From NCBI GenBank assembly GCA_973895155.1, contig OZ316891.1, positions 31,627,112-31,691,111 on the forward strand: a stretch of 64,000 bases of DNA, given 5' to 3'. The translations under genes were made by a program, and so were the position numbers. Below, piece by piece: positions 5,341-56,097 of this stretch (position 1 is its first letter; every line of letters begins with the position of its first letter). The stretch is from Marsupella aquatica (Eukaryota > Plantae > Marchantiophyta). The notes below the pieces were generated by a model, which made no database searches, was not told the DNA's origin, and worked only from the letters and a program-made list of their open reading frames with translations.

Positions 5341-5663
5341 ATTGAACCCCTGATTGAGCATAAATCTCAATTTGCCAATCCGCCATCCCCTAGTCTACTC
5401 CCTCCCACTAACCCTACACATGCATCACATACACACACAACAAACTACTTTTAATAAACAATAGTCAATTATATATCACAATTTACTCACACTTTGAATG
5501 TATGTAGTCAAAGCCTGCAAGTCACTTGCATCTAGTACATACACTCTGTCAACTATCCCAGACTTCATTGTCAAGTTCACATTTGAAATTACCATTTCAA
5601 TATCAATTGTCCATCTGTTGCATCATAAGTGAACAAAGTTTTGTTGTTACCAGTAGATTTGTA

Positions 5664-8600: not shown

Positions 8601-9878
8601 TTCATGTTTTATAGAATCACATAGAGTGCAAGTGAGGTGTTGAAAACCACCTCCATTAATGGACACCCTGTGACATTGCTTGTGCCTAAAACAACCCTGT
8701 ATACCAACAACTGACTGGCTAGTTACATTGAAAACCTCAGCATAGGTGGTACGGTCATAGTCCCAGACATTCCCTCCCTCTTGATCATCAAGTATGCCCT
8801 TCACATCCATAGAATCCCCTGTCCACTTGACCTCTGACTCCCACAAGCCCCAACAAAGCAAACTTAAACTTGGCTCAACGGAGGAATACAACCCACCTCT
8901 GCCTGAACTGCTCCTTGCAGCAGAGCTGTCCTCTCTAAAGAAATTCAGAATAGAATTTTGAGATGGAAACAGATCACGAGCATCAGGCTTCCTTGGTCTC
9001 CCCTTCTTCCCTGCCCTCAGTGCAGCCTGGGTATTGGTGACGACATTCTCAAGTGCATCCATATGATCCCGACTGACAAGGTGTTGCCTTAAATTGTGTT
9101 CCAAATTGGATTTCTTATGGCACATGTTAGTATGTAGCTTGCCATAGACTGTACATCTAACCTTAAACAGGAATGACCTCTGTGCAAATGTTGGATCAGT
9201 GGGAGATGGTGTGATAGAGAACACTTCTACCACCCCACCTACCTCTGCATTCAACTTTTGCACTATTTCCACACCAGCCCCTATTTGCATACTATGATCA
9301 AACAATGGTTGCTGTATAGTGTCAGCAGCCGTCACCAAAGCTCCAGCTAAACCCCTTCGCTTACACCAGTTCTCCTTGTGTTTAGGGTTGGTCAGGTGCT
9401 TTGTCTTGAAGTTGCTAAAGCAATTTGCGATGGACTTGAGCACCTGTGAAGTGGCTGCATTCCCATAAGTCTCCCTACACTCTAAGCATTCTAGATGACC
9501 TCGACACTCCCCTCCCTCATGCCATGTTTGCACTTTCCACTGGTGCTCACCAAAGCCCTTCTGGTTCACCCAGGATCGTAGCTTCAACCACTCATCATTC
9601 CAGGCCTTTGATGCAGCCTCAGACATGAGGTGAGACTCAAAGGAGCCTGTGACAGGCTGTACAATAGCCTGTACTGGCACCCCTTGTGTTTGTCCTTGAG
9701 ACAATGGAGTCGTGCCTGCCACATTGGACACAGTGGCAGTAGATGAATGAGAGGAACCAATAGTGACCCTCTCAGTAGGCAAGGCAACTGAGGGTAACTC
9801 TGCAATCACGTAAATTGTCCCTTGAAGTTCAGTCACCCCAATAGTCTTCTCTGAAAAGCGCCGGACTCGACCAGGCAA
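5664..9878 (-). pseudogene. P-element/THAP9-like DDE transposase, disrupted (copy 1)
   Basis: Ordered motifs are FAEDETRIK (D1), GHASDGD (D2), DQDPPHNGKK (DxxH), DRQN and GSDCCEIFFS (E). N-terminal CxxC...H...H zinc-finger-like motifs are present. There is a GT-AG intron between ..KERPR and WEAKYD.., plus several stops and frameshifts. Confidence 0.75.
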
Positions 9879-11176
9879 CCTCTCATCCCAAAAATCGAAG
9901 TCAAACTCTACTGCACCAACACATTTCAGACGAAAATCTGCCAGAGTCTGCCTTCTTTGAAGGACATGACACAGATTGGCGTATCAGGCTTTCCTCCCTC
10001 CTCACCCTTTTCTACCAATCTGACAGAGCTCATGCCTAGGTGTGCCATGATGGACAGTTATACAGGCTGTGAAAGTAAGGGATAGGGATTAGGTACATGA
10101 ACCTGTCATACAACAATGGACAGACATAGAAAAAGATCAGGACTCAAGTCAACCATTCACAATGTCATTTGAACACTCAATAGACTATTGTAGTCAATGA
10201 AACTTACTTGAGTCCATTTCAGTTCATCAACCTTCCATTTCATTCAACCAAATACTTAAGTCCATTTCATTCATCAAAAAACTCAAGTCCATAGCATTCA
10301 ACCAAATACTTAAGTATAATTTACACAAGGGATTACACAAGGTGAGCATTGGACTGCGGGGCCTGCCATCGACTGATCGCTGGGAGGTTGAGGTCTGAGC
10401 TACTGGCTAGGTCTAGATTGTGCTTGGCCCCGTTACGCTTTGGGGCCTCCGAACATTCACAGGTGAACTCTGATGCGATGGTCTAAGTTGGAAGCGCAAA
10501 TTGTTTATTAGCTACCTCGGATGTAAACTGGAGGCTTACGGAATCGTGGAGCGTTTTGTGGGGTACTACACCAGGATCACAGGGGAGTACGCTCTGTGCC
10601 CCACTAGGATCGTGGTGGAGCACTCCATCTCTGTCCTAGATGGTTCAAGATAATTTCTACAAAGCAAAGCGAGATGGTACGGTGACACTCTGAAGTGGAA
10701 TTTGCCATGCTCCCATTGACTGTCTCTTGAGGGCGTAGTATTGGAAGGCTTGAATCTGCCGCTGCCGGTTACTCGGGACTTCTTTTGACGACACGACGTT
10801 GGATGCGGGGCCGCTGCGGTGCAACTAGCTGAAGGTGCATTGGACTCCTCTGCTAGCTAAATGCCTGCACGATCAAGCCTTGCTGAACGCCGGATGAACT
10901 TCAACCCTTTGCTCGAAGATTATTGAGCTGGGGGCCTGGGGAACCTCGGATTATCTAGCTAGGATAAGATTGAACTGCAACGACATTAAGTATTTGCAAC
11001 AATACTTATCAACGCACTTGGATAAGGAGCAATACGTGCCCAAGGTCGGCTGTGTTCGAAGAAGGGCTGGATAGACACACTTGAATGACACCCACACAAC
11101 AATCCAAACAAGGTGAGACCGAGATCCAAGCTCACATTCTTTTGCATCGCTGCTCTTTGCTTCGGGTGGACTCACC

Positions 11177-13243
11177 ATGGAGTATGGCAGAACGGGTGGA
11201 TGGGAGGGTGAGAATTCCTCCCGTGCTGCTGGCTATCATGGGGCTCGACCTTATCAAGAGTTCCAGGGGCAGGATTTCTATGGACATGAGCAATTCAGTA
11301 GACAGGATTCTTGGAGTTCGCCACTTCGCGGAGGTGGACGTGGACGTGGACCTTTCTCTGCTAGGTCGGGGCGCCCCCCGTTCGTTGCTCAGCCAACTTA
11401 CGATCTCTTTGCGGATCAGTCAGGAGGATACAACTCCACCAAGGATCTGTAGCGTGCACACCCTGCGGAGGGAATTGAGAACAAGGAAAATGCACAGCCA
11501 ACCACGTCTAGCACCCCCAGGGATGCTGAAATGCCTCATGCTCCCCAAAGGACTCCGGTGGCATAGGACACAATGCTTGGCCATACTCCGACTCATGTTC
11601 AGGAGAAGTCTGCCACTTGGAAGAATGCTGCTTTCGGATCAGGGATAGAACCGGCTGTTGTTACCGAGGATTGCATTAACATACTAAAAGAGATTGGAGA
11701 AGTCACAAAGGGTGACTGGCACCAGAAACTCTTTACTACAGTGGAATGGCCATTGGAAGAAGCAGCCAACAATGTTCGACAATTGTACAATTGTGCTCTA
11801 CTTTGTTATTTCACTGATAGACCTCCGATGCTTCCCACTTTTCGAGCTTGGATAGATGAGCAAATGGTATGTGGGCGAGGCTGGCCGGTGCTGCAGGTCA
11901 AATTTGTTGGTAAGAACTTTTACCTGGTAGTCTTTGCGAGTGCTGATCATCGGGATCTTGCTCTGTCTGCTGCTCCATGGTTCATTGAACGCAAACTAAT
12001 CTTTACATTCCCATGGGACCCCACATTTGATATTCGAACAGAGAAATATACCAAACTACCAGTCTGGATTGAGCTTCCTTTTCGGGCACTGGTGTTGGAA
12101 GGGTGCCGGATTAAGATCGCGGAATCACTGGGCAAGCTGCTGCACTACATCCAGGGGGATGAATACAGCTCATACCCGCATGACAGAGCTTGTATCCTTT
12201 GGGATACGGAACGGGAGGTTCCTTTCAGCGCTCGTGTGAGGATCCGAGAGGATATTATCATCTGGCAACCTATTCAATTCAAGAATATACCATTTCACTG
12301 CTTTAAATGTAATAAGAAGGGACACTTAGCTAGAGAATGCAGAGATGGCTTCGAAGAGGCGGCCAACACGTCTGCTGAGCACATTGAAGGGGAGGAGGAC
12401 GCTCACACACCTGAGGAACTTGATGGGGTGGCTGAAGGGGACCCCGATGAGGTACTGAGGACACAATTGGCGTCGAATCTGCGCGCCAGGGGCAGAGACA
12501 AGCATTTGCCTTGCGCTGGCGGCCCATCGGTGGCAACTGACCTCAACACGGTGGAGTCCTTATTGGAACACATTGAGGATGTGCCTGAAGTGATACCGAT
12601 TCTAACTAGTGGCATTCCACGGGAACGTGTGGCTCTTGCGGGAGGAATTTCCATCCCTCAGAAAGATTTGATCACCCTGCCCACTAAAGAACAAGGGAAC
12701 CTGATATCCTCGCCTGCCCCGACAGTTACTAAGCTTTTGGCCGACGCAAGTATCTTTGTTCCGTCTGGAGATGTCAGCTCGCCTCTGATAGCACCTGGAA
12801 CCTTGGTTGTGCACTCACAGAATGTAGACCCCGAGGCGTTTTCATATCACGGAGATTCTGATGTGGACTTAGAGATGTCCGAATACGAGGAGTATGTCTC
12901 TGGTAAAGGGAAAGAGAGAGTTCGGAAGTTGGATACTCGGACGCCGCCTCCTGCAAAGAAGGACAGGAGCACTCAGGACTCTAAAAAGCAACGTTCCTTA
13001 CATTTCTCACCCACAATTGTGTCGGATGCAGGGACAGGAATGGATGGAGAGGATAGCAGAATGGAGGCTGAGCGGTCCCCTGGATGGAGGGCCGTCCCCT
13101 CTGGTGGCCAGCTCCCACTCTTGACAGGCCTGAATGATACAATGATGGAGGATACTATTGTGGATACTCCGCGTCACCGTCAAGGCCTTATCACTGCTAG
13201 GGATGGCAATGGCTCCTCCCCGGGTGGACGTGCACACATTTGA
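11177..13243 (+). pseudogene. LINE ORF1p (RGG-rich N-terminus, DUF4283-like domain, CCHC zinc knuckle); one in-frame stop at 11450-11452
   Basis: APWF..W.P.F...PVWIELP pattern and CFKCNKKGHLAREC knuckle. ORFs 11177-11452 and 11573-13243 are in the same frame. Confidence 0.85.
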
Positions 13244-13284
13244 GGATTGGCACTCTGCTCTGGTAGCGGAAAGGGGGTCGAAGT

Positions 13285-16200
13285 ATGACATGCCTACTTC
13301 GGATTGCTTCCTGGAATGTATGCGGATTGTGTGAACCTAATAGGAAAATGGTAGTCAGGAACTGGATTGAATCCTGTAGAGAGAAGATAGATATTCTAGC
13401 GTTACAAGAAATAAAAGCAGATCAATTTCGGCTGGATATTGCTCTGAGGGCTATACTGCCGCTGTATCAGCACCTCACTTCTGCACCAGATGAGGGTCGG
13501 GGTGGGTCTGCTCTGCTGATTCACCCTGATCTGAAGATATTGGCAACGGGCATGATTGACCTGGGAAGGGCCGTATGGGCCGTGATAGAATCGGAAGGAG
13601 GCAAATTTGGAATGGTTAGCATCTATGCTCCGAACTCGCCTCGACTACGGGCTTGCTTATGGCACGAGCTGAAATCACTCCTTCCTCAAGGCAATTGGAT
13701 TCTTGGTGGGGATTTTAACATGACAGAACTTAGAGAAGATTCGAGTGGGCTATCACCTTTGCTTAAGGGCCGGGAAGCCGAGTTTTGGCGTTTTTTGAAA
13801 GTCCGGCTGGATCTGGCGGATGCACTGCTGATTAAAGAGGTTACTGGCTCCCGTTTTACCTGGCGCAGATGCAGAAACGAGGTAACTGTGCAGTCACGTC
13901 TGGATCGATTTTACTTCAGTGAAAAAGGGGAATGGCTGGGGGACCTATTGGAACTGATACATGATGGGGGGTCAGCACTTTCTGACCACGATCCTGTAGT
14001 GATCATAATTCGACTGGGAGACAGGGAGGACATCGGTTGTCCCCCGGGTGGGCCGGTGTGGTTTAAAGTGAACCCGGCTGTGGTCAGAAACAAAGATCAT
14101 CTGGAGGCATTGGAAGGAGCCTGGAAGCTGGGGAAGGGCAACTGCACTGAGCCACTGTTGGCTTTTGAACGAGCTTCCTGCCATTTGCGCAAGATGTACC
14201 GTTTAAAATAGGGCTCCCCTAAAGCACGAGCGGAAGAGATGAACCTCTTGCGGACTCGGCTTCGAACTCTGAAAGAGTCCCTGCTAGAGGACAACTCGGA
14301 GGAGGATATGAGAGAATATATAATTGCTGAGGATCTCCTGCATGCTGCGGAGATGGAAGAGGCACATGTTGGGAGACGACTAGCAAGGATAAAATGGCTA
14401 GGAGAAGGTGAAGAGCCCACTAAATTTTATTTTGCTACGGTAGCAGCAAAGCGAAGCAGGGAAGCTATGAGATCTCTTACCATTGCAGACGGAGCAGAGA
14501 TTACTGAACCTGCTCACATTCTGAGGGAAGTCGCCAGACAATGTTTAGATCTGTATGCCCCCCCTGATCTGACTACAGGTGAGCTTGGGGAGATGAGGAA
14601 GGCCAGGAGCTCTCTCCTCGCTCACACTAGACACCTTAACCTCCGCTGAACTGACAAGATTAGAAGTGCTCCCCAATGGTAAAGAAATCAAAGATACTCT
14701 CTGGCAAATGCCATCTGATAAGGCCCCTGGCCCTGATGGAATGACAGCAGAGGTTTATCGGGCTTGTTGGCACTTTATTGAGACGGATCTCATTGCCATG
14801 ATACAGGTGTTTTGGTTGTCTGGCAACTTAGCTGCTGGCATTAACGATGGTATCATTAAGTTTATCCCCAAGAAACTAGATAAGAGGCTTCTGAAGGACT
14901 GGAGACCCCTGACCATGCTGAACACCATTTACAAGCTCATTGCCAAAATACTGGCCAATCGGTTGATGGTTATCCTTCCCAAGCTGATTAACCCACAGCA
15001 GACAGGATTCATTCCTGGCAGGAACATTTTGGAAAATATCTCACTGGCCTGGTTAGCTTGTGACTGGACCAAAAACAAGCACAGGGAATCCTTGTTTCTC
15101 AAATTAGACTTTGAAAAAGCATTTGATAGAGTCAATCATGAGTACATTTGGGAGACAATGCACCTGCTAGGGATTGGCAGCCATTTCATCAAGCTAGTAC
15201 AGGCTTTGCTTGCTGAACCGTCGTCACGTGTGCAGGTCAATGGCTTGATGTCTGAGACCATTGGGCTAAAGAGAGGTGTAAGACAAGGCTGCCCGCTTTC
15301 CCCTCTGCTATTTGTTATATCGACCCAGCCCCTTATGGATCTCATGGATGCGGAATTAGCGGCTGGGAGACTACTAGGGATACAAATATCAGAGGAATTG
15401 ACCCTCTGTTATCGACTCTTTGCGGATGACTTGGGAATGCTGATCCCTGCTACAGAGGAGTGCTTCCACATGGCCACAATGGTGCTACACTGTTACGAAT
15501 CTGCAACTGGAGCAAGACTCAATTTACGCAAGTCTGTGATCATACCATTGGCAATGGCTTCTATACCATGGTGGTTGACGAATACAGGGTGTGTAATCAG
15601 CAAGAAAGGGGAGCTACAAAAGTATCTGGGTGCACCATTGGGGGTGGAGCTGCAGAAGGATCATTTACATCGCTTTGTTCTTGATAAAATTGGTGCACGC
15701 TTGTCATCTTGGGCCAACAAGCTGCTGTCATTCTCTGGAAGGATCCTCTTGATCAGGCACATCTTACAGGCGATACCCATTTATCATTCTATGTTCTTGA
15801 AAGCCTCTGACGGCCTGGCAAGGAAATTGATAGCACTATGTCGGGATTTTCTGTGGGGCTACAACTCTGAAGGAGGCAAAAGGGTACCTCTGGTCTCTTG
15901 GGCTAGAATGGCTAGGCCTAGGATGGATGGGGGCCTGGGGCTGAAAGACTTTTGTTGCCACTCGGACGCTCTTCTCTCTAAATGGTTTACGAGAGCACTG
16001 GACTCCCCTGGCACGGAATGGGCCTGCCTCTTTGCAGAAAATTTGAAATTGGTTAGCTGGATGAATTTCAAGTGGATCAGGAGGAATAAGTATTCTTTCA
16101 GGGATAAAATGTTGCTTTGCTTTCCACGATCATTTAATGGCCTTACATATACTGGAGGATTATGGAAAGCTTGGATGCAATTAAGACCTCATCTGATCTT

Positions 16201-17200
16201 TTCCCCAATGGATTTAATGCTTGGCAGGTGGAATGTAATGGATACACTACGTTGCCTTGAGGGCTTTCAGTCGTGGCCTAATGCGGATTTTACGGCGGTA
16301 ACAGTGCTCTGTGGACGCTTGGGCATACGCAGTATCCGAGATCTTTGGTCAGTTGAGTTGCAAACGTGGCGTGATTTGGTTGCACAACTGGCACACATTA
16401 GAGGGTTCTCTGCACGTGAGCGAGGCTGTTGCAGGGAGTTTCTAGAGAAGGTTACAGAGATTGATGGATGTTGTATGCACTATGTCACTGGAGCTCGATG
16501 TTGGCGATGGGCGGATCATCCGGCCCCTATGAATGCCTTTCAAATTACCAACAGGCGGGCTTACTCTCTACTTAGCCCTACTGTGGAGGATTTTCTTAGC
16601 CTGAATTGCACTTGGGGCAGCACAAAATCGGTAGGTGAATGGAAGGCGACCTGGATTGGGCTGTGGAGATCCGATCTATCCTCACGGGCAAAAACTTTTG
16701 TCTGGAGAGTCCTAGAGTCCGGATTATTTACAGGAATCCGTGCTGCCCGCATAGGCAAGGGAGATGGATTTTGCAAGCTGTGTAGCGGTGTCACTGAAAC
16801 CATGCCCCACCTCTTTTCCCAGTGTGTGCATGCCCGCAAATGTTGGGCATTAAGTGCTAGGTGCTTCCAAGGCACCTTTCCTGATTACTCGAGTAGGATG
16901 TTATCCATGCTAGATCTAACACTAGGTAGAGAACACAGAACAGTTGCAAATCTATTCATTTTTTACCAGATCCTATGGTCATTGTGGTTAGGATGGAATG
17001 TACATGAGTTTCAGGCAAATGGCTGCAAGAAATTTGATCTTAGATTCCTATTATCGGAGGCAGCCGATCATGTTACTGCGGTGGGCTTGAGCTTGCCCCT
17101 GGGCAGGCGGCGCACAAGAATGATGCGTGTTAAAGAGCTTATTAATCAGGAGAGAGTGGTGTGGTTGCGTAGTCGTCAGGTTTGGATCACGTTTGGCTGA
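13285..17200 (+). pseudogene. LINE ORF2p (APE endonuclease, reverse transcriptase, zf-RVT); stop at 14209-14211 and frameshift near 14650
   Basis: SWNVCGL, GGDFN, SRLDRF, SDHDP; KAPGPDG, KLDFEKAFD, GVRQGCPLSPLLF, LFADD; C-terminal CKLC...ETMPHLFSQC. Confidence 0.95.
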
Positions 17201-17445
17201 GGTCTTTTTGGATCTCAGGGACGGAGTATATTGTCGTCTTGGTTTCTGGCTGATGGCTCGGGCATTTGTGTGCAGCGCATAGCTGGTTAGTTTGCCTTGC
17301 TCTGTATTGGCCCTTGGAGGGCTCGGGTACAGGAGAGCTGTGTATAGCTGGTTAGTTTGCCTTGATAGATATTGGCCCCCTAAATTCTGGGCGTGCATGA
17401 TATGCTTGGCTTGCTGTTGGCCCCCACTGTTGATTTGGGGCAAAC

Positions 17446-20400
17446 TGTGACGCCGCCGGTACGGCGGTTAATGAGTGATTCAGTCTAACTGCGCTCGGCA
17501 CGCGCGTTAGGTGGGTCTTAGGCCGCTATTATTAGCATAACGACAGTATTTAGGTAATCTTTAGGGGTAGGACATCATTAGGCAATAAGGGGGACTTCAG
17601 GTTTGGACTGGCGGCGGGTCGCTATTCGCACACCCGGGTTACGAGCGTGGAAGGGCCCCTCCCTCGGGTCCGTATAACGAACTTAAGGAAGCGGCCACTG
17701 ACGCACGCTGACTCAGACCGGCGGAGTGGCCGGTACACCACAAGCGTGAGCGGTTCAGCCTATGGGCGCCGAGGAGACGTCGGGGGATCGACAAGCCCTC
17801 AAAGTATAAAAGGGGAGCCAACCCTTTGTAGTGCACCAGTCCATCAGTCCGCGCGCCAGCTTTGATCCCAGCTCTCTCGGTCTCTCTAGGTCGCCACTAC
17901 TATCTCCTTTGAATGTCGCACACGATCCTCTCCAGCTCGGCCATTCGATTCTGGATGCAGTTCCTATCTACCGGAAGGCACTTGGCCGATTCATTGAAAC
18001 ACGCCAACCCGCGCCGATACGAAATCGAACGCGAGTACGAGAGAGCCATCCGCCTAGCAGGACGACACCACTACGTCCTTAACTTTGACTACCCATCTCA
18101 GAGCGAGCTTTACCGACCAGTAGAGGTATTTGGGTACTTCTTCAATGGAGACAAATATATCGGTTTCTGGGAAGCATTGCTTCGGCTTCTGGACGAGGTC
18201 TTCAATATCCCGGGTACAATCGACCTGCAGCGACATCACTTTGACCACATCCCTGCCCGGGTTCGGGCTGTCATTAACGGCGAGTCCAGTACCAACCGTT
18301 CGACAAGGGCGTCCGCACTCGCTTCGGAGAACTTCTACCAGCACCTGCAGAGCTTCATGGGAACTCGGCCATCAACCAACATGACCAACTCAGCTGTGCC
18401 CGTACCCGTACCCGTGCCCATGCAACCCCAGCCTCAACCTCAGGCTCAGCTTCAGCTTCAGCCTCAGCCGCAGCCTAGCCAAACCCCACCACCTATCACC
18501 CAGCCAGCACAGGTACGCTCCGTCATCAACGCTGTGGATCTTAGCGATGACGACGAGGCTACCCCACCCTTGACCAGGCGGCCCAGAGGAACAAGCGCTC
18601 GGGGGGCCGACACTATATCGTCCCCACCCCCTGCTCTGACCCCAGGAGCGGCCCCAGCAGACAACATGGTGACCGTGGCCGCCCCGGGCCCGTTACCAAC
18701 GGCAGTGGCACTACCCAGGCCCGATCAGGAGGATGGGGAAGTATCACCTTCCCCGAGCCAGTCACGGGGAAAGAAGAGGAAGGAATCCGCCACTACATCC
18801 AGGTTACCGTTGGCCACGGTAGCCGTAGCCAAGGTGACGATGCACCGCATGGGGGAAAACGTTCACAGCAACATCCTCCATCCTAAGCATGCGGTGTACC
18901 TGAAGACTCGGGGATTTGAGCACCTCACCTCTCTCCCCTGGAACACTTGCAGGTACTACGGGGAGGACATGACAGAATTCGTCAAGAATTATGATGACGT
19001 ACGTCAACAGACTCGGCTGCGGGGAAGGAATATGTCCCTCACAGAAGAACGGCTCAAGATGATCTTCGGGTTACTCGAAGGTGACCATCGAGTCGAATCA
19101 CGGGCTCCCGGGGGCAAGGGAGCCAAGTACCAATCTTCAAGTTTTCCCTCAGAGGGAGCAGTAGACAACGGGTTCGTGATGAGGACCTGCCTCATGCCCG
19201 AGATAGCTGAGCGGCTGGAGTTCCAAAGGTACGCTCTCCACATGATGGAACCCCGGGGGGAGATCTCCGCCGCCCAGGTTATCCAGGTCGAGAACTATCG
19301 ACCTAGGAAATGGGCATCGTACTTCGCTAAGAAATTCCATGAAGACATGGAGCGGCGAAGGAAGACGCTGTACATTGGCGGGAAGGCGTATTTCGCTAGC
19401 CACATCGAAATCATTCTTGAGTGGTACGCCCGGTTTGATCGACGAACCCTTCCCCGCATCAACGTTACAAAGCTGGTCCCAGCTAGGTGGGTTTTTCCGG
19501 CATTGGAGAGACGGCCCCAACCCGAGGCCCGAAGTCCAGCGGACACGCCAGCTTCACCCACCCCACCTCCACAAATAGCTGTAATCGTAACCGAGGAGGC
19601 GCCGGATGGGTCGGTTGTTGCAACCGTTGATGCGACCCAACTAGCCGGGCTAAGCACAGAAGTTGTTACGGCAGAGGTATTACCCGAGCCCGGGTCTCCC
19701 AAGGACCCACCGGTGGCAATTCCGGAGAATCGGACATTGCTGCAGGAGAACACTCCAGCCCCTTCCAACGTTATGTCCCCAGGGCTGGACGTCACTGCCC
19801 CGGCCCCCGCGCGTGTTGACGTCTGCCCGTGCCCAAATCCGGACAGGCACAACTTGGACCACCCGGAACTCTTCGTACAGGGTACGTTTCTAAACGGGCT
19901 TCTGGGAGATTTCTCTCATCAAATTGCCCGGGATACCGGGGAGTTCATGGCCCGAAAGGTAGCCTGTTTCTTCAATCAGGAGTTGGTTGCCGCAGTAAAG
20001 GCAGGTCGGGCCCAGTCGGAGGCCCTTCAGAGGATAGAGCGGTACCGGGTGGAGTCCGTGTACCTAAAGAATGAATTGGCGGCTCAAGAGGCTGAGCTTC
20101 TGCAACTACGACCCAAGGTTGCAAAGGCGCACGCTCTTACCGCCCTAGCCGAACAGGCCAAAGCTGGGAACGAGGCCGAGATTACCCGACTTCGGAACCA
20201 GATTGACAGTTTGAAGAAACAAGCTGTCACCTGGCAGGAAGACCTGGAGGAGGCTGAGGAGCGAGCCCAGCGGGACACGGCGGAGATAGCCACGCTGCAG
20301 GCCGAGATGGCGCGGCTCCAAACCGAGGCCGAGAAGCAGGACCAGCTGGCGGGTAAACTGACGAGCGACGCCCAGCAGCTGGAGGAGGCATGTCAGGAGG

Positions 20401-21443
20401 CAGCAGAGGAGACGGACGCGGCGAGGCGAGAGAACGAATCTCTGCTGGACCAGGTCCAGCTCCTCAAAGCGGACAATGACAGGCTTCGAAGGCAGCGGGA
20501 TGGCCGTTCCCATTCGGGCGGCTCTGGCAAGCGTGCCAGGCATTAGCGGCAGAGTAGGAGTAGATTAGGATTAGGATTGGCTTAGTCAGGATCTTGGGAC
20601 AGGCACCTGCCTTTGGTACAGCAGCGCTGCCCTGCTGTCCAGCCTGCGTAGATTAGGATCTTCTAATAAGACACAGCCGTTTTCCGGCCTGACCATCAGC
20701 TTAGTTAGGACCTTAGTCAGCGAATCTTCGGCGAGAGGACACCCCGTCCCTCAGCTCTTAGTATTTAGTGCACCCCTCGGTAGAGGCAGGGGGGGTTTTA
20801 GTTTCAGAGTTGGACATCCGCGGGATATGCGGGGAGTCCCGACCTCTGGGAATGAAAGAGTACCAAGGGGAGGGGGTAGGACTAAGCTCGCCGGGCGAGT
20901 GTGGAGCCGGGCTCCGTTGTAGTGTGCACCCTCGGCCTTGAACCTGTTCATTCCAGGCCTGTCGGGTCAACTAAGTGTACGCATGTGTTTCCCTTTGTAG
21001 TAAAATCCTTTCCCATCATTTTCCTTCGTGTAAATCGAGATTGTATGCATGTGTACGCATATGTGTGTGGGTTTCTTGTATATGGGTGGCAGCGCCAGGC
21101 CGAACGCACTACCCGAGACGTGCACATGGTGCAGCCTGCGGGTAAGTGGTTGCGAGCACGGGTTGAGGACCTGTATCATCAAATCCGGATCGAAGGCGGA
21201 CAGCACGAAGGCTTAGAAGCCCTTAAGCCGGGGTCGATCCTGCTATCGACTAAGGTACGTTCCGGCGGCGGAACACAAACCATACCTAGGAGGTGTCCGT
21301 ATTTAGCAGTATGCGCACTTAGCGCTAGTTTACGAGAATAAGGTGTATTATGTGCTTCCCTTCCTGCCCGAACCCTCAGATTTACGAGGGATGTGCCCAT
21401 CTAAGCTGAAGTCTGAGTTAAGGCCGAAGCCGACGGCGTGACA
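17446..21443 (+). mobile_element. 3998-bp TG..CA element (solo-LTR-like) copy A, protein-coding
   Basis: 5-bp TSD CAAAC at 17441-17445 and 21444-21448. Ends TGTGACGCCGCCGG / CCGACGGCGTGACA (12/14 inverted match). No gag, pol or terminal direct repeats. Confidence 0.9.
17913..20546 (+). CDS. 877-aa protein of unknown function: QP/Pro-rich region, plant-transposon accessory-like central domain, long C-terminal coiled coil, basic NLS-like motifs
   Basis: Uninterrupted 2.6-kb ORF with TATAAAAGG ~100 bp upstream (~17805), RGKKRKE and GKRARH basic motifs, and a heptad-rich C-terminus. A collinear decayed homolog lies at 35312-37978. Confidence 0.85.
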   Translation: MSHTILSSSAIRFWMQFLSTGRHLADSLKHANPRRYEIEREYERAIRLAGRHHYVLNFDYPSQSELYRPVEVFGYFFNGDKYIGFWEALLRLLDEVFNIPGTIDLQRHHFDHIPARVRAVINGESSTNRSTRASALASENFYQHLQSFMGTRPSTNMTNSAVPVPVPVPMQPQPQPQAQLQLQPQPQPSQTPPPITQPAQVRSVINAVDLSDDDEATPPLTRRPRGTSARGADTISSPPPALTPGAAPADNMVTVAAPGPLPTAVALPRPDQEDGEVSPSPSQSRGKKRKESATTSRLPLATVAVAKVTMHRMGENVHSNILHPKHAVYLKTRGFEHLTSLPWNTCRYYGEDMTEFVKNYDDVRQQTRLRGRNMSLTEERLKMIFGLLEGDHRVESRAPGGKGAKYQSSSFPSEGAVDNGFVMRTCLMPEIAERLEFQRYALHMMEPRGEISAAQVIQVENYRPRKWASYFAKKFHEDMERRRKTLYIGGKAYFASHIEIILEWYARFDRRTLPRINVTKLVPARWVFPALERRPQPEARSPADTPASPTPPPQIAVIVTEEAPDGSVVATVDATQLAGLSTEVVTAEVLPEPGSPKDPPVAIPENRTLLQENTPAPSNVMSPGLDVTAPAPARVDVCPCPNPDRHNLDHPELFVQGTFLNGLLGDFSHQIARDTGEFMARKVACFFNQELVAAVKAGRAQSEALQRIERYRVESVYLKNELAAQEAELLQLRPKVAKAHALTALAEQAKAGNEAEITRLRNQIDSLKKQAVTWQEDLEEAEERAQRDTAEIATLQAEMARLQTEAEKQDQLAGKLTSDAQQLEEACQEAAEETDAARRENESLLDQVQLLKADNDRLRRQRDGRSHSGGSGKRARH

Positions 21444-21599
21444 CAAACACAATCTGCGTCCCCCTGCCACGGGGTCTTTCGTGGTTATAGTAATAAAAGA
21501 AAACAAACTTCAAGGAAGTATAATTTAGGTTGTCTTATGGGTCCACTACAAAAAGGGTTCAAGTTGTAAGATGGTGGAATTAGTAGCAGTCATGCTGGT

Positions 21600-22235
21600 C
21601 TAGTCATGGGTACTTGGGATATCAGAACCCTCTCGGATGACATGGCGAGTACAGTAAATCATGCGCCACTGTCCAATGTCCCAGGTGTCTCGGCCCCTCA
21701 CCCTTCTCCTCAAGTGCCTGTCTGCTGTTGGTCCTTCATCACGACACCATGCACGAGGGCATCTACGACATTGGAAAAAATCCCAAATGCCCTCCCGATA
21801 CTCCTTACAGACCTCACAGTAATGTCGTGGGCATATAAGAGCATCGGGATGTGCATCAGGGTTATCTGGATGGCGGGTGAAAGGCATTTCCCCCAATCGC
21901 AGAAGTGTCCGGAGACAACCCACATGGTAAAATGAGTAGCAGTCATCATGAGAACACTGGATCACAAGGGGCTCATATGTGGTGGGTCTCAAGGTTCTGC
22001 CAAGGAGTCCACAACCAAAACATCTTCCTTTGTTTTGCTGATAGATGTCACAAAGCCAAGCTGCAGCCCAATCATGACCTCTGGAAATGACAATCCGCTG
22101 ACATGTAGGTCCATGGCCATCTTCCTCATCAGGGTTGTGGCCATCAACTACATAATGAAAATGGCGACCACAAGGGCCATCACAAAACAAAATAGTTCCT
22201 CCCTCATCACATTCAAAACAGCAAGGGGGATCCAT
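21600..22235 (-). CDS. EDM2-type composite PHD-finger protein (exon or possibly degenerate gene) carried inside the P-like element
   Basis: CFECDEGGTILFCDGPCGRHFH..C..WLCD..RCFGCG..IQCSHDDCYSFYHVGC..ICPRHYCEVC..QCRRCPRAW..RMIYCTRH follows the Cys/His order of the plant EDM2 PHD cluster. One expected Cys appears replaced (CDIY). Confidence 0.75.
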   Translation of the reverse strand: MDPPCCFECDEGGTILFCDGPCGRHFHYVVDGHNPDEEDGHGPTCQRIVISRGHDWAAAWLCDIYQQNKGRCFGCGLLGRTLRPTTYEPLVIQCSHDDCYSFYHVGCLRTLLRLGEMPFTRHPDNPDAHPDALICPRHYCEVCKEYREGIWDFFQCRRCPRAWCRDEGPTADRHLRRRVRGRDTWDIGQWRMIYCTRHVIREGSDIPSTHD

Positions 22236-23018: not shown

Positions 23019-23685
23019 AACCTCCCCAATTCCTGACTTCTACCAATTGATCCCTGCAAGAAAGAAAGGGAGTTGAAGTTATATTTCATGCATACAAGTA
23101 TCAAACAAACATACAAAGTAGATAGTGTCCAAAAACAGACAGACTCCTATATGCAAACATTCGCATCAGACAAGCAGGTCTTTATTATGTAAACTGCACC
23201 AAACACAGGGATACACTTGGAAAACGTAACCAGTCCTATATACACCTGCGTTTTGGTATGATCAAGTTTACACTTTGCCAAAGGGCATTTGCCTCATCCT
23301 GTTAATCATTTCTAGTTTCCTCTAGTGGAATGGCTTGTCTACGACTCATGGTACACTAAACCATAAACTATAAGAAACTGTCTGCTGCTCTGCAACAAAG
23401 TGAAGCTTACTTGAATCCTCCAAACAGATGCCTAGAATTGCTGCTCTGTGATAATTCAACACAAAACCCCTACACAAGTCCCACACACAACAAAAAGCTC
23501 AATAGAACATCAATAGTCTCAACACACACCAAAAGCTTAGTACAGTGAAAGTGAATGAGGACCGCAAATTCTCTCACTGTGACACTCTTTATAGTCTCAC
23601 CAGAAATGCTTTGAAAAACAAAAATGCCAGGTTAAATAAACTGCGCAGGTTAAAAAAACCAGGTTCTCTATCACATTGACAAACA

Positions 23686-26600
23686 TGTTTCATTCAATGT
23701 ATTCACCAACAATGATCACGCTTCTCTTAGGAGTGTAAGAATATATGGGTTACATTGATGGGCAGTTATGTAACTGCCCTAACTCCTAATTGTCACTTAG
23801 AGTGTAATCTACATCTTATAACACTCCCCCTTGGTTCTTTGAAGTGATTAGAAAAAGAACCACTCTATGGAGATTGTAACTCTAAGTGTTAATTATTTGA
23901 TCCTTATAAGTAGTATGGCCTCATTAAAACTTTCCCGCTTTCTTCTGAAAGAAAGAGTGCCACTACTGTACAAGTAATAAGGTCATCGAAATACATTTAG
24001 GGTAATCTAATGAGAACTTTATAGTGAAAGTTTCGTGCAGTTTCGAGAGTTTTAGTTCTAGCTGTGAGTTTGTAGTAGAGTAGATAGACGACGCATCCCA
24101 ATACCATGTGTGTGATCGTGGTGAACTGAAGGTGGGAGGGGCTTAGTGAAGAGATCTGCGCGATTATCTTTACTTGCAATCCAATGAACTTGAATCTGAT
24201 CGCCATGCTGTTCGTGAGTGTAGAAAAATTTGGGGGCAATATGCTTTATCCGATCTCCTTTGATAAAGCCTTGTGTAACTTGATCGACGCAAGGGCAATT
24301 GTCCTCGTAGATAGTTGTTGGAGCGTTGAGAAGTGGACGACCTGTATGCTGATTAATGTGATCAATTAGTTGCCTGAGCCAGATGCATTCACGACTTGCT
24401 TCGTAAAGGGCAATGATTTCTGCATGGTTCGAGGACGTTGTCGTGAGGGTTTGTTTGGAGCTTCGCCAAGATATCGCGGTGCTGCCTTGGAGAAATACAT
24501 ACCCGGTTTGCGATTTAGCATCATCCGGGTCCGAAAGGTATCCAGCATCAGCAAATCCGATGAGTTCAGAAGGAGCATCGTTGGGAAAGAACAATCCCAA
24601 GTCAAGTGTGCCCTGTATGTATCGAAAAATTCGCTTTACGCCATTCCAGTGTCTTATTGTTGGTTGTGAACTATGACGAGCAAGAAGGTTAACAGCGAAT
24701 GAAATGCCAGGGCGTGTGTGATTCGCTAAGTACATGAGCGCACCAATTGCTGAAAGATAGGGTTTTTCTGCTCCAAGTATCTGCTCTGTTTCTGTGCGTT
24801 TCTTGAATGTATCTCGATTCGGGTCCAGAGATCTCAGTTCCATTGGAGTGCTCACTGGATGAGCTTTATCCATGTTGAACTGCTTTACAATCTTTCTTGC
24901 ATAAGTTGCTTGATTAATAAGTATGCCGCCCTGCACATAGTCAAATTGAAGTCCAAGACAGTACTTGGGTTCTCCTAGATCTCGCATTTGAAATGTTGTT
25001 TTCAATGTTGCCATTGTTTCTTTAACTATTGTAGGTGTACCGAAGATGTTAATATCGTCTACATAAATAGCGACGATTATGTAATCTGTGTCATGTTGTT
25101 TAAGAAAAAGACAGGGAGCAATGTCGTTATTGACGAAGTTCAGAGCTAGCATCTCTGCCTTAAATCTTTTATACCAGGTTCGGCCACTTTGTTTGAGCCC
25201 ATATAGGGATCGCAGTACTTGGACTGCCAATTGTTTTGTCTGTATAGCAGATCTGGGAAGTCGACTTCTCGCTTGATGTGCACTCGGCACCTGTAATTCA
25301 TGAAGAACTGAAGGTTCGTTTTCATGTGCATGCTTTAGAAGGTACTCTATAGGAGTTTTCCTTGTTAACCCTGATTGTAGATCAGGGTTTGTATTATGTT
25401 TATTCTCCCCCTGAATTCGAAATGTCATTCGTGTGATTAACTCAGGAGGAGCCTTCATGTAGATTGTAGTGTCCAATATGCCATAAAGGTAGGCTGTGAT
25501 AACATCTAGTATGTTTAGTGTCAATTTGTGCGTAAGTGCAAACGCTATCATGTATCTATAAGTTATCGAATCCATCACGGGTGAGTAAGTAAGGTCAAAG
25601 TCACGTCCTGGGATTTGCGTATAGCCTTTAGCAACCAGTCGTGCTTTGTACCGAATTATTTCTCCTTGAGCGTTTCTTTTCCGTGTGAAAATGAATTTAT
25701 ATCCGATAAGTGATGTGTGTAGAGGGGCAGGAATGACCGGACCAAAGACTTCTCGTTGAATTAATGAGTCCAATTCAGAATTAAGTGCTATCTCCCACTG
25801 GGGCCAATCAGGCCGCTGTTGTGCCTCGTTGACTGACAGGGGATCTGGGGTGTCATTGGTGATATCCTGAGATATATCGAATGCAAATATATCATCTATA
25901 ATTGTATCCTTTCGATGCCATAATCGACCAGTATGCATATAATTGATGGATATTTCTTGATTTTCTTCTGGCTGAGTGAGAGAGTGGGTAGATGGTACCG
26001 GTGGAGGTGGCACATTCGTTGGGTTAGCTGGTGGTCGTCGTTGGCGAGGTTGGCTGTCTCTAGAGCCCAGTGGACGACCTCATTTTGCTCTTGGGGTAGC
26101 TTCAGTGGCAAGTTGGTCTGGTATTAGTATTCGGGCTGGAGCATTGGCCGCCTCTGTGTGTGAACGGGTTACTTCAGTTGCATCATTAAAAGCATCCGGT
26201 AGCTTTTCCAGCATCTGATGGAGATGTAATATGCGTCTGACTTCTGCATCAGCTTGTCTGGTACGTGGATCAAGTCCCACCGGTAGGATGGTCTGCCATT
26301 GTAATAATTGTTTTCTGCCATTCTCATCGGATGGATGTGTAGTTAGTTTCGGAAATTCGTCTTCGAAAAAGGTACAGTCAAGGAATCTGGCCTTGAACAC
26401 ATCTGTTGTGGATGGTTCCAGGAACCGAATAATGGAGGGCGAGTCAAAACCAACATAAATCCCTCGTTGGCGCTGGGGGCCCATCTTGGTGCGTTTTGGG
26501 CCTAGGATAGGGATAAGGACTAAACACCCAAACGTCCGCAAGTGAGAAATGTTAGGTGGTATACCAAATGCAAGGTAATGCGGAGTATGGGTATTAAATG

Positions 26601-29034
26601 CGGAAGGTCTATATTTTAGGAGAGCAGCTGCATGCAATATTGCATGTCCCCATGCTGTAGGAGGAAGCTGTGTTTGCATGAGGAGTGGCCGAGCTATCAT
26701 TTGTAGTCTTTTAATGAGAGATTCTGCTATGCCATTCTGAAAATGAACGTGCGGTACTGAATATTGGGTTTCTATGTCGGCAGTCTCACAAAAATCATCG
26801 AATGTTCTCGACGTGAACTCCCCGGCATTATCAACCCTGAGTGTCTTTATTGGATTGTCAGGGAACTGTAGCTTTAACTTGAGGATGTGTGATAAAATCT
26901 GTGGGAATACTAGGTTCCGGGTCGAGATTAGTGAAACTTGGGACCATTTTGATGAAGCATCAATAATGGCCAAGTAAAACCGGAATGGACCAAATGGCGG
27001 GTCAATCGGGCCACATACGTCAGCGTGAAGCCTTTCGAGGAATTTAGGAATGGAGTGAATTGTTTTAGATGTGGCTGGTCTGGTGATTAACTTTCCCTGT
27101 GAACACGCAAGACAGGGGCTCTTCAGAGATGATGGGCGCACCCCCTGGGGTATGCCTATCGTATCCCGGATTATATTATGGTACATGTTGGTACCAGGGT
27201 GGCCTAGCCAATTGTGCCAGCGCTCTGTGGGAGTTGGAGGAACTATTTCTACATGTAATGCGTGTATGGTGGTGATGTATAACCCGGGAGGGTGGATAGG
27301 CAAGGTTTCACAGATTTTCATTCCAGGTGGAGAATGGTCAATAATGTGTAGGACTTCACCCTCATTGGTCTTGCTTGTATATATGTGAAAGTTGTTAGCT
27401 CTTATGTCTCGGAAACTAATTAAATTTTGTGTGGCTTTAGGTGCGTATATTGCCGAGGTGATGTTGATTACTGTGCCCTGGGGGAAACAAACTGATGCGG
27501 GGCCGTGCCCTTCCTCAATATGATTATGTCCTGTGATGGTAGTTATGGCTCTGTGAGAAGCTATAATTGTTCGAAAAAAATGTCGATTTCTTAGGATGGA
27601 GTGGGAGGTCCCACTATCTACTATGCAATTAGATGGTGTTAATTTGCCTTGTGATTGTGCATCCATATGAGCAACGTGGGTTTCTGGAAGGGGTGTATCA
27701 TGTGTATAAGCATGTATGTCTTCAAGAATTTCCATAAAATTGCCTTGTGCATCTTCTGTTTGCCTGTTTATACTTTCTTTATAGAGCTTGACCAAGTGTG
27801 CAGGAGCCCGACATTCTTTTTGTAAATGTCCTTTTGTACCGCATCGGAAACAAGAGGGTGTAATAAACTTATCTCTTGGTTGTGCTTGGTAGCCTCTTCC
27901 TCGATTCCGTCCGCCACCTCCGCGTTGATTCCAAGTGGGGTCTTGCTGGAATTCTTGGGATTGTTGTCGGAAGCTCCCACTGCCTCTGTATCCTTGGTAA
28001 GTTCCTCTTCCAAATGCACGTCCTCGGCTCCCCCTGAAGTTGCCACGTCCGCGCCCCCGGAATCTTGAGGCCATAAGATGAGTTTCTGGTCTGGCTGGAG
28101 GGGCTGCACTCCCTGGTGGTCTTGTTTTAGCATTGTTGAGCAGTATTATCTAATGCTTCTCAGCGAGGAGCATATGTGATATCAATTGAGAATACCGCGT
28201 GAAATTCATGTTTCGATATTGAGAGGCTAGAACTATGTTAGTTACATGAAAAGTGGACAGAGTCTTTTTGATCTGCTCTTCATTATCCACTGGATTACCG
28301 CAGATAGCTAATTGGGAGGTAATTCGGAACAGTTCGCTGTTATAACTTGCAATTGTGCTGTAATCTTGTACTCGCAGGTTTATCCAATCGTGGCGGGCTG
28401 TCGGGAGTGATATGGTCCGCATATGATCGAAGCGTAATTGTAGTTCGTCCCATAGGACCCTTGGGTTGTAGTGATTGAGATATTGAGTCTTAAGCGGTTC
28501 AGCGAGATGGTGCCTGATTAGTATCAAGGCCTGAGCCTTCTGTTGTAATGTAGTACCTGCATCGGTTAAGGTTGTATCTTGCAGGTCTTTAGATGCTAGA
28601 TGTGCCTCCACATCTAAAGACCAAGACAACTAATTTGCGCCATCGATCACGAGAGCTTTGAAATGTAATTTCTCCATGATTGATCAATGCTGCAATTGGA
28701 AGTTCCGATGCTGGCTAGCTTGTAATAAGGTTCTTTGATAATGCAATTGTTTATGGCTAAGGAGATGATTTCTCTCACCGAGTTCCAAGAATCAGTTCCA
28801 ATCGAGGAATAGTGCTGCTGAAGTTTAACTGCGCGTCATCTGCCTCTATCTAAAAAAAATAAAATTTGTCACACACATCAGCTCGTGCTGATAACGTGTT
28901 TCATTCAATGTATTCACCAACAATGATCACGCTTCTCTTAGGAGTGTAAGAATATATGGGTTACATTGATGGGCAGTTATGTAACTGCCCTAACTCCTAA
29001 TTGTCACTTAGAGTGTAATCTACATCTTATAACA
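23686..29034 (-). mobile_element. Ty1/copia LTR retrotransposon (Bianca-like), Copia-1
   Basis: 138-bp LTRs at 23686-23823 and 28897-29034, identical by eye, TG..CA. TSD AAACA at 23681-23685 and 29035-29039. PBS at 28881-28896; PPT at 23824-23831. Confidence 0.97.
24058..28677 (-). pseudogene. Copia gag-pol (gag, CCHC, protease, integrase, RT, RNase H) with three in-frame stops
   Basis: All ORF pieces are in one frame. CFRCGTKGHLQKEC, IVDSGTSH, HADVCGP, RVDNAGEF, YKARLVAKG, SLYGLKQSG, YVDD, GFADA, ADLFTKPL. Confidence 0.95.
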
Positions 29035-32359: not shown

Positions 32360-32379
32360 AATACAATCAATTGGTTGTC

Positions 32380-32787
32380 AATGCACTCCGTGGCTGGTTT
32401 GCCCAAAACTTGAGAGAAGAAATCGGCAATGGCATGAAGTTTCCCTGGCTTAATATTTAACTTGTAGTCAAACTCTTGTAATAGTAATATCCACCTTGCT
32501 ACTCTTCTTGTTAAGTCTGGCTTATTAACCAGGTACTGTAAACTTTCATGATCTGTATAAAAGATTCCCTTGTATCCTAATAAATAATGCCTGAACTTCT
32601 TACAATAGTATATAACTCCTAGTGCTTCCCTCTCTGTGGTTGAATAGTTTCTCTCGGCATTGGCAAGTTGTTGGCTTGCATAATAGATGTGATGGTCCCT
32701 TCCCTTCTCATCTAACTGACTTAGTACTGAGCCGATAAAGAAGCCTGAAATGTCTACATATACATGACAATCCTTGTTCCAGTTGGG
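32380..32787 (-). pseudogene. Ty3/gypsy RNase H fragment
   Basis: Minus-strand translation reads HVYVDISGFFIGSVLSQ..IYYASQQLANAERNYSTTEREALGVIY..KKFRHYLLG..TDHESL..RWILLLQEFD..KPGKLHAIAD. Confidence 0.9.
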
Positions 32788-32789
32788 TT

Positions 32790-47945: not shown

Positions 47946-47999
47946 CTTTTGTCCTTTATTTGTTTGCCTTTGGTTGTCATTATGGTTTGTCACACTAGC

Positions 48000-56033: not shown

Positions 56034-56097
56034 TCCCCTCCCCCCCCCCCCGCTGCTCCCCAAGTCGAGTGGTGCACTTGGTCAGCACACCGTCACC

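Follow-up and report, generated by a model that had tools for sequence, protein, structure and literature searches.

A 64,000-nucleotide stretch of the Marsupella aquatica genome (hereafter the window) contains a 4-kb mobile unit with TG..CA ends and 5-bp TSDs, whose single long ORF is almost certainly a selected accessory gene of the unit. The unit is probably the solo LTR of an LTR retrotransposon, and the core domain of the encoded 877-aa protein is predicted to share the fold of VANC21 and the plant mobile domain (PMD). The complete reading, in which a solo LTR carries an accessory gene for a protein with such a core acting in the nucleus on its own DNA or chromatin, has in our judgement an even chance of being correct.

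Architecture and dispersal of the unit

The features of the unit and its surroundings, with positions in the window, are as follows.

11573-21505, + strand: L1-type LINE hosting copy 1; right flank similar to the tail of the second LINE in the window
17441-17445, + strand: left 5-bp TSD of copy 1 (CAAAC), the same five bases standing at 21444-21448
17446-21443, + strand: copy 1, TG..CA unit of 3998 bp, likely a solo LTR; both ends confirmed by loose contig ends in other runs
17446-17459, + strand: left terminal inverted end, 12 of 14 bases matching the right end
17446-17912, + strand: 5' non-coding part, predicted promoter region; K2P 0.143, diverging faster than the ORF
17805-17813, + strand: TATA-like box TATAAAAGG, function predicted, with the ATG 108 bp downstream
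17913-20546, + strand: intact 877-aa ORF under purifying selection, 66% of the unit
17934-18275, + strand: conserved N-terminal helical domain, aa ~8-121, without informative fold match
18288-18812, + strand: Pro/Gln-rich, fast-evolving linker, dN/dS 0.64
18813-19502, + strand: conserved basic core domain, aa ~301-530, dN/dS 0.18, predicted VANC21-like fold
20010-20507, + strand: predicted coiled coil, aa ~700-865, dN/dS 0.19
20529-20540, + strand: C-terminal basic KRAR patch, also near the end of the relative P0039
20547-21443, + strand: 3' non-coding part, T/G-rich stretch (possible 3'-end signals)
21430-21443, + strand: right terminal inverted end of copy 1
21444-21448, + strand: right 5-bp TSD of copy 1 (CAAAC)
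34840-38880, + strand: copy 2 with its own 5-bp TSD (CCATG), unit proper 34845-38875, ORF broken

Copies 1 and 2 align end to end at 88.2% identity and both are single units within different 5-mer TSDs, which bears out the claim of the initial annotation that they are independent insertions (CAAAC and CCATG) with the same boundaries. The 14-bp inverted ends that it described are short and imperfect, with 12 of 14 bases matching in copy 1 and 8 of 14 in copy 2. Its further observations were also confirmed, namely that two-thirds of the unit is one ORF downstream of TATAAAAGG (at 17805) and that gag, pol and direct repeats are lacking: the ORF has no gag/pol or rve Pfam match, and within copy 1 no direct repeat exceeds 13 bp, so that there are no two direct terminal repeats. 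The TATA element of copy 2 is TATAAACAGG, with TATAAA retained at the position matching copy 1. Rfam gave no match in the unit, and an 11-bp repeat shared by the 3' part and the vicinity of the TATA box is no more than expected by chance (E 3.1). The insertion site of copy 1 is in the LINE 3' UTR, about 55 bp ahead of the A-rich end.

In public sequencing runs, here X1 to X4 (a further small-share run, X6, was left out when considering habitat or host), the unit recurs at high copy number with precisely the same ends and varied flanks, in line with the earlier view of a real mobile unit with integrase-type ends (TG..CA, 5-bp TSDs, dispersed copies). Contigs matched to it numbered 8,067 in X1 and 12,572 in X2, with 30 of 30 bins covered. 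Because contigs of other runs with differing flanks end abruptly just at 17446 and 21443, the unit boundaries are not due to chance; additionally, in one run the two flanks meet with no unit between them (joint 17445>21459). Single contigs near the right end reached depths of 4999 (X3) and 3606 (X4), while unique-flank contigs had 30-52 and 11-32, respectively, and as a rough inference from these ratios one unit variant has 100-300 copies.

Ginger-like elements are integrase-type DNA transposons with their own integrase and long terminal inverted repeats, whereas our unit has no rve match and only 14-bp imperfect ends. It is nevertheless conceivable, if unlikely, that a single-terminus non-autonomous unit travelled as one entire DNA segment with the help of an integrase-type enzyme acting in trans and was never part of a two-LTR element. 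Both window copies are single with TSDs, the predicted promoter, ORF and tail form a self-contained cassette, and no long protein was found linking the core to pol. The evidence from the protein searches is weak: longer or fused forms of 1587-4530 aa were absent, and the three Calypogeia proteins of 446-2000 aa have no Pfam domains. The junction contigs likewise have mixed flanks (left-end agreement 0.42-0.46) and no tRNA-type PBS, with TGG within 5 bases of the right end in none of 7 loose-end rows (16 contigs), by a method that is partly blind. Against this, the inverted ends are only 14 bp long and match at 8 of 14 bases in copy 2, and one X3 contig (depth 423) has a continuation common to about ten copies. 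The contig junction method apparently misses junctions that overlap the end by some 30 bases, the shortest piece listed having 37 bases, and the junction contigs are weak evidence both ways on paired copies. Further, TG..CA ends, a 5-bp TSD and short imperfect inverted ends together are typical of LTRs (PMC2864245), and solo LTRs are abundant in moss (PMC7251063).

If the unit is a solo LTR, the parent element would have had two 4-kb LTRs flanking gag-pol, and unequal LTR-LTR recombination would have left a single LTR within the TSD. The parent was probably a Ty3/gypsy element, judging by analogy from the end motifs and from gypsy-borne PMD/Athila-type ORFs; TGTCACG-type ends are common in Ty3/gypsy LTRs. 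The window also contains a gypsy RNase H fragment (32347-32814), which was rejected as a parent on the ground that copy 2 is enclosed by a TSD of its own. The predicted promoter lies only 360 bp from the left end and would place the ORF in R/U5, which is awkward for an LTR. It is very unlikely that the unit is instead the LTR of a large non-autonomous two-LTR element (LARD type) without gag-pol, with the LTR gene as sole coding part. Such an element would fit with the very long LTR and with no search having revealed a pol link, but an autonomous partner with the same ends would presumably be needed anyway. LTRs reach about 5 kb in non-chromoviruses (PMC6317226), and the 4-kb unit is inside this known range.

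Selection on the gene and its relatives

The ORF of copy 1 is uninterrupted over 17913-20546 and encodes the intact 877-aa protein initially annotated. In copy 2, the start codon has been lost and the frame is broken by two frameshifting indels and 7 stops (copy-1 codons 51, 86, 107, 146, 577, 701 and 847). The suggestion that each solo LTR remains an expression cassette was therefore overstated, as copy 2 is a pseudogene and 14 of the 15 listed members of the related Calypogeia family are partial. A lone LTR cannot copy itself via RNA, having no PBS, PPT or second repeat, so selection on the ORF would have operated on complete elements, with decay as the fate of most solo copies.

Between the copies, 863 codons gave a dS of 0.22 and a dN of 0.068 (dN/dS 0.31), and by region the ratio was 0.18 in the core, 0.19 in the coiled-coil region and 0.64 in the Pro/Gln-rich linker, indicating purifying selection. 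The K2P distance was 0.106 for the ORF, 0.058 for the core and 0.14 for both non-coding parts. Among the changes not explained by the decay of copy 2, 40 of 62 were synonymous vs 29% expected (p 8e-9).

The ORF is also conserved more widely, with 37 distant relatives at E<=0.001 among 1.84 billion searched sequences. A full-length relative of 906 aa (P0039) has 29% identity end to end. The sole named relatives come from the liverwort Calypogeia fissa, where they form a dispersed family of mostly broken members (cluster n=28), of which 15 listed members on 7 contigs comprise one full-length and 14 partial sequences; this family is multicopy, with the same intronless architecture. Two neighbouring gene models there, CAM6086391 and CAM6086394, differ at 12 of 173 residues, no fewer than other pairs (7-14), which lends no support to paired LTRs but is little guide in so star-like a family. 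No related loci were found in metagenome, viral or prokaryote contigs, and a 16-aa viral match (L001) was taken as chance. A word-seeded protein search with the whole ORF gave no match, at a low sensitivity, since the 906-aa relative is present in the collection. Elsewhere in the window, a short profile match to an ORF at 39428-39952 (probability 27.5%, 22 columns) was rejected.

Some relatives lack the N-terminal domain and may be host genes. This would suit the idea that the ORF is a captured host gene, as would the proposal that VANC was captured from a host MAIN-like gene (PMC13547354). Such a capture, or an ordinary element that lost its interior and whose ends recombined, as the initial annotation had allowed for, is hardly credible here, as dN/dS is 0.18-0.31 between mobile copies, both ends are common to many copies, and the Calypogeia family is dispersed and multicopy with the same intronless architecture. 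In addition, no second LTR (and hence no LTR pair), PBS, PPT or pol remnant was found inside the unit, while the same check applied to the window's two Copia elements did yield LTR pairs and PBS-side and PPT motifs. The unit is thus not a deleted ordinary element, and recent passive capture of a host gene is largely refuted, although an ancient capture is conceivable.

Predicted fold of the core and possible roles of the protein

The core is basic in composition (35 K+R vs 26 D+E) and has no membrane helix, and the linker ahead of it closes with a basic KKRK patch (aa 287-290), a predicted nuclear signal. Coiled-coil Pfam matches in the ORF are weak and all under the cut-off. Before any fold search, we had presumed the core to be PMD/Transposase_32-like. 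No Pfam match above the curated cut-off was found for PMD-A, Athila ORF1 or Transposase_32; the core of one of 38 family members matched Transposase_32 (PF20167) at E 0.059 and 13.7 bits vs a cut-off of 45, ATHILA matched none of the 38, and neither the ORF nor the 38 alignment members matched DUF1985 or PMD.

Structure prediction, which the initial annotation had called for over residues ~310-530, gave a confident core model (pLDDT 88, pTM 0.84) with one clear solved-structure match, VANC21 on DNA. Model residues 8-235 aligned with the VANC21-DNA structure 9LNK at Z 8.2 (rmsd 4.3, 209 aligned), although in this structure search Z values of 7-8 are often attained by models that have no true match. 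Only two of 48,161 solved chains reached Z >=2, the next after 9LNK having Z 2.4. Independently, Foldseek ranked 9LNJ first (prob 0.92, TMq 0.50, E 0.056), with TMq <=0.16 for the other matches listed, and realignment with VANC21 gave Z 8.3 (ranges: rmsd 4.2-4.3, 209-212 aligned). Counting against our reading, the aligned residues share 8-10% identity, and a sequence profile searched against PDB sequences retrieved only coiled-coil or chance matches and not VANC21. A viral fold library yielded nothing credible, and the N-terminal domain gave a weak model (pLDDT 60) whose matches were all generic helical hairpins (best Z 5.5). Taken together, the models point with moderate strength to a VANC21/plant-mobile-domain fold, and true homology with the VANC/PMD fold is likely. 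The 877-aa protein itself is not a VANC family member, because it has no DUF1985 match and no Mutator context.

In the mechanism that we propose, Pol II would start behind the TATA box at 17805 and produce the ORF mRNA, the basic patches would direct nuclear import, the coiled coil would form oligomers, and the VANC-like core would act on DNA or chromatin. We lean slightly towards a DNA or chromatin regulator. In the most speculative step, the protein would act as VANC does and relieve its own element family from silencing, and this anti-silencing role is put forward, by analogy, only tentatively.

As to short target motifs of the VANC kind, raw k-mer counts showed no excess over shuffles, and YAGTATTAY is absent from the unit. 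The word CTTAGT is in mild excess (7 vs 0.8, family-wise p 0.003 at one of 10 settings, by z-score), with all 7 CTTAGT/ACTAAG words of copy 1 in the 3' non-coding part and 5 in the whole of copy 2. C>T/G>A changes on the side of copy 1 account for 19 of its 27 near-fixed differences from runs X1/X2, and 16 of these lie in CG/CHG. Copy 1 thus shows methylation-type deamination marks, which count against our reading, and has not escaped silencing.

The absence of a clear motif array and the deamination marks suit a rather improbable alternative, in which the solo LTR and its accessory gene are as described but the protein serves RNA, particles or integration (nuclear import, targeting) and not silencing. 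The VANC-like fold would then be a distant scaffold shared with Athila and Ogre extra ORFs, and extra ORFs bearing Transposase_32, Athila ORF1 or PMD domains together with nuclear signals and coiled coils are widespread and of unknown function (PMC7264820, PMC6317226, PMC11728184). What speaks against it is that the core is basic and that the one protein structurally close to it was solved in complex with DNA.

Relation to known elements and implications

VANC proteins are anti-silencing factors encoded by VANDAL (Mutator-like) transposons (PMC5735166, PMC13547354), with targets arranged as tandem arrays (PMC5735166) and a predicted coiled coil (PMC13547354). PMD structurally resembles the DUF1985 of VANC (10.1101/2024.09.27.615353; PMC13547354), and gypsy elements are the only ones to encode PMD-A (PMC5418596). 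Like VANC, the Marsupella protein is a transposon-borne accessory protein with disordered linkers, a predicted coiled coil and a predicted core fold that aligns over 209-212 residues. Unlike VANC, it shows 8-10% identity, no DUF1985 match and no tandem motif arrays, and its carrier has TG..CA ends, 5-bp TSDs, one ORF and no transposase, and is not VANDAL/Mutator. VANC is described as dicot-specific, whereas the Marsupella ORF family is named only from a liverwort.

Among the extra ORFs of Ty3/gypsy elements, we compared PMD-A (Ogre), Athila ORF1/Transposase_32, Retand Transposase_28 and Grande gene23 (PMC6317226, PMC7264820, PMC5418596, PMC11728184). As in these, there is a conserved accessory ORF with its own promoter (predicted here), nuclear signals and a globular domain plus coiled coil; unlike them, it has an additional conserved N-terminal domain and no above-cut-off Pfam match. 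Those extra ORFs are described as lying between the LTRs, on either side of gag-pol, whereas the Marsupella ORF persists in solo copies because it is positioned between the TG and CA ends.

The unit resembles plant solo LTRs in being a single TG..CA unit within a TSD at high copy (PMC7251063), and differs from ordinary ones in encoding a long selected protein. Two thirds of the 4-kb Marsupella unit is taken up by the gene. The LTR of MMTV is much shorter than 4 kb. A precedent for a whole gene within the U3 of a retroviral LTR is MMTV sag (PMC12548423), which is from an animal retrovirus and encodes an unrelated membrane protein. Among the entries listed in full-text searches of mostly open-access literature, there was no report of a plant LTR with such a gene. 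New here is the confident core model with VANC21 on DNA as the one clear solved-structure match.

The family represents a testable handle on the role of plant LTR-retrotransposon extra ORFs, an open question in PMC7264820, and on whether the PMD/VANC fold originated in transposons or host genes, left open in PMC5418596. A fold member in a liverwort mobile element would extend the PMD/VANC fold beyond angiosperms. Solo-LTR formation is viewed as the plants' way to disarm retrotransposons, and an LTR-borne regulatory gene would instead be scattered by it. By analogy, the element may bring along a means of influencing host silencing. It is doubtful that the gene for a sequence-specific anti-silencing factor of the VANC type moved into the LTR of a liverwort retrotransposon lineage, with every solo LTR that host-driven deletion leaves still supplying the factor in trans; if true, the transposon-borne VANC/PMD fold would predate the split between bryophytes and flowering plants, and the gene would come in two doses per insertion and represent the retrotransposon counterpart of VANC.

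The unit and its surroundings

The 4-kb unit is a real feature of the window, where it occurs in two copies together with the following elements:

17446-21443: unit copy 1, TG start, CA end, own 5-bp duplication on both sides
34845-38875: unit copy 2, TG start, CA end, own 5-bp duplication on both sides
11573-21505, + strand: L1-type LINE
52076-58263, - strand: L1-type LINE
42075-47949, + strand: young Copia element, 201-bp LTRs (99.5%), intact 1537-aa polyprotein
23682-29034, - strand: young Copia element, 142-bp LTRs (99%)
32347-32814, - strand: Ty3/gypsy RT-RNase H fragment (E 3.5e-33)
21600-22235, - strand: PHD-finger ORF
31255-31746, - strand: Myb/SANT ORF
39380-41925, + strand: run of ORF pieces with a coiled coil, a RING-like Cys pattern and no Pfam match

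The initial annotation had described two TG..CA insertions with 5-bp TSDs, a single long ORF behind a TATA-like box and no direct repeat, and all three points held: both copies carry the ends and a duplication of their own, copy 1 has a single 877-codon ORF with the box upstream at 17805, and no internal repeat >13 bp was found in the unit. The ends form imperfect inverted repeats (12/14 positions match in copy 1, 8/14 in copy 2), and the copies are 88.2% identical in full-length alignment, with the ORF of copy 2 disrupted by 7 stops and two frameshifts. Copy 1 is inserted in the 3' UTR of an L1-type LINE. At window position 20121, an in-frame stretch of 21 bases (7 codons) found in copy 2 and in contigs of other runs is missing from it. 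A Pfam search of the ORF returned sub-threshold coiled-coil matches only, and paired LTRs, PBS-side and PPT motifs were absent from the unit but present in the two Copia elements under the identical check.

Both Copia elements have a non-TGG primer site adjoining the 5' LTR and LTRs without terminal CA, and the two LINEs resemble each other in ORF2 (about 66%) and in the hairpin-like tails that precede the A-run. Additionally, a unit of ~4.8 kb at 5341-10166 contains several ORFs without Pfam match (220, 342 and 389 aa tested) and is probably a young DNA-transposon-like element; its 97% identical inverted copy has been broken into three pieces (33536-34243, 49310-51833 and 59028-60682) by later insertions. 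By eye, 61510-62517 (- strand) presumably holds pieces of a Harbinger-type transposase. The gypsy fragment is not linked to the unit, and 39380-41925 was rejected as a relative of the core family, the short likeness being weak.

Dispersal and the proposed parent element

Mobility was tested on contigs of public runs, and part of the unit was present in six of the nine runs listed, from four studies; one run may be the source of the window itself. All 30 bins of the unit were covered by contigs in X1 (8,067) and X2 (12,572). Left loose ends begin exactly at 17446 in 15 contigs of X1 (agreement 0.42) and 6 of X5 (0.46), and right loose ends at 21443-21450 in 16 contigs (7 rows), so the flanks vary among copies. 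Flanks joined without the unit are present in X2, a joint at 20634 in X1 and X2 resembles one copy nested inside another, and none of the 15 joints listed (of 34) skips the ORF. The unit is thus a dispersed, high-copy mobile unit with exactly these integrase-type ends. Single contigs reach depths of 4999 (X3) and 3606 (X4), compared with 30-52 and 11-32 where the flank is unique, which points to some hundred copies, a rough figure since the method cautions against reading depth as copy number.

A solo LTR is the likely origin. The parent element would have had two 4-kb LTRs and lost its interior by unequal recombination, a route described for solo LTRs with TSDs (PMC7251063), and LTR lengths of up to about 5 kb are on record (PMC6317226). 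One X3 contig of depth 423 extends 17 bases beyond the right end, a depth that points to a continuation common to about ten copies, which may be internal region or a nested repeat. The parent element itself did not come to light. No TGG-type PBS was seen in the loose-end rows, where multi-contig rows are majority strings and short-overlap junction contigs were apparently missed; Tcn1-type elements of seed-free plants are described as having no tRNA PBS at all (PMC6317226; PMC2864245). In plant LTR retrotransposons, extra ORFs have been reported from the internal region (PMC7264820; PMC11728184), whereas the ORF studied here lies between the TG and CA ends. Within an LTR it may occupy R/U5, or U3 with its own promoter, or run antisense, and the MMTV sag gene is described in U3 with its own promoter (PMC12548423). 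The unit lacks the structure of TRIM or LARD elements and falls outside the Pfam-defined extra-ORF families.

Selection on the ORF and age of the family

Selection on the ORF is evident from the comparison of dN/dS between copies that the initial annotation had proposed, which gave 0.31 over 863 unbroken codons, the exclusion of the 7 stop codons lowering the ratio slightly. By region, the ratio was 0.18 for aa 296-535, 0.19 for the coiled coil (aa ~700-865) and 0.64 for the Pro/Gln-rich linker, and the ORF is the less diverged part, with a K2P of 0.106 compared with 0.14 for the non-coding sequence on each side. Transitions driven by methylation raise the number of synonymous changes, so the changes were split by class: synonymous changes made up 40/62 with T/A in copy 1 (29% expected, p 8e-9), 47/102 with T/A in copy 2 (37% expected, p 0.04) and 11/34 of transversions (20% expected, p 0.055). 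Further, among the 40 differences listed between runs and copy 1 (555 in total), 33 were classed after dropping 4 flank rows and 3 mainly from X5; 27 of these were near-fixed against copy 1. In 19 of the 27, copy 1 carries the C>T/G>A change; of the 17 that lie in the ORF, 11 were synonymous. Together, the synonymous and C>T/G>A excesses mark copy 1 as a descendant of a selected lineage and as having itself been methylated in place. A lone LTR is incapable of retrotransposition, so the ORF would be selected in full elements and decay in most solos.

Searching with the core (aa ~301-530) found 37 relatives among 1.84 billion representatives, including the 906-aa P0039, which aligns end to end with the ORF protein at 29%. 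The 13 named relatives among 30 proteins examined all come from Calypogeia fissa, where a single cluster comprises 28 proteins. Of these, 15 were listed, on 7 contigs; 1 is full-length (831 aa) and 14 are partial, a pattern that fits a mobile family which is dispersed and decaying. The window itself therefore probably comes from a liverwort or some other plant without seeds. Calypogeia members share a layout of N-terminal domain, linker, core, linker, coiled coil and basic tail. The protein family is old, and the ORF is solidly a real, selected gene.

Predicted fold and possible role

Ahead of the fold search, we had tentatively taken the core to be of PMD (plant mobile domain)/Transposase_32 type; a Transposase_32 match in the core region appeared in 1 of 38 family members (E 0.059). 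Structure prediction, which the initial annotation had also proposed for residues ~310-530, gave a confident core model (pLDDT 88.0, pTM 0.84; 26 sequences) with one clear match, the transposon anti-silencing protein VANC21. Only two of 48,161 solved chains reached Z >=2. One is a designed protein, with 2.4; the other is 9LNK, which holds VANC21 with its target DNA (Z 8.2, rmsd 4.3, 209 residues aligned, model 8-235). In a separate Foldseek run, 9LNJ, the sister entry of 9LNK, ranked on top (E 0.056, prob 0.92, TMq 0.50; Z 8.3 when realigned to the core model), and TMq was <=0.16 below it among the matches listed. The method cautions that models without a true match often reach Z 7-8; the score gap, whole-domain coverage, agreement of two methods and the resemblance reported between a VANC domain and PMD (10.1101/2024.09.27.615353; PMC13547354) favour VANC21, and the modelled core probably has a VANC-like fold. 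PMD A clades are described as encoded by gypsy elements only (PMC5418596). Sequence comparison alone gave no link between core and VANC21, and the N-terminal domain had no informative fold match.

The gene is predicted to be driven by its own promoter and its product to be nuclear, given the basic patches KKRK (287-290) and KRAR (873-876), with the coiled coil predicted to serve oligomerisation and the basic core DNA or chromatin binding. VANC-like motif arrays are not evident in the unit, and its predicted core fold is akin to that of VANC but the unit itself is not a VANC member. In function it may be likened to a retrotransposon accessory gene, and by modelled fold to VANC/PMD. VANC is described as countering the silencing of its own transposon family (PMC5735166), and we hypothesise, speculatively and by analogy, that the protein encoded here may likewise counter silencing of its own family.
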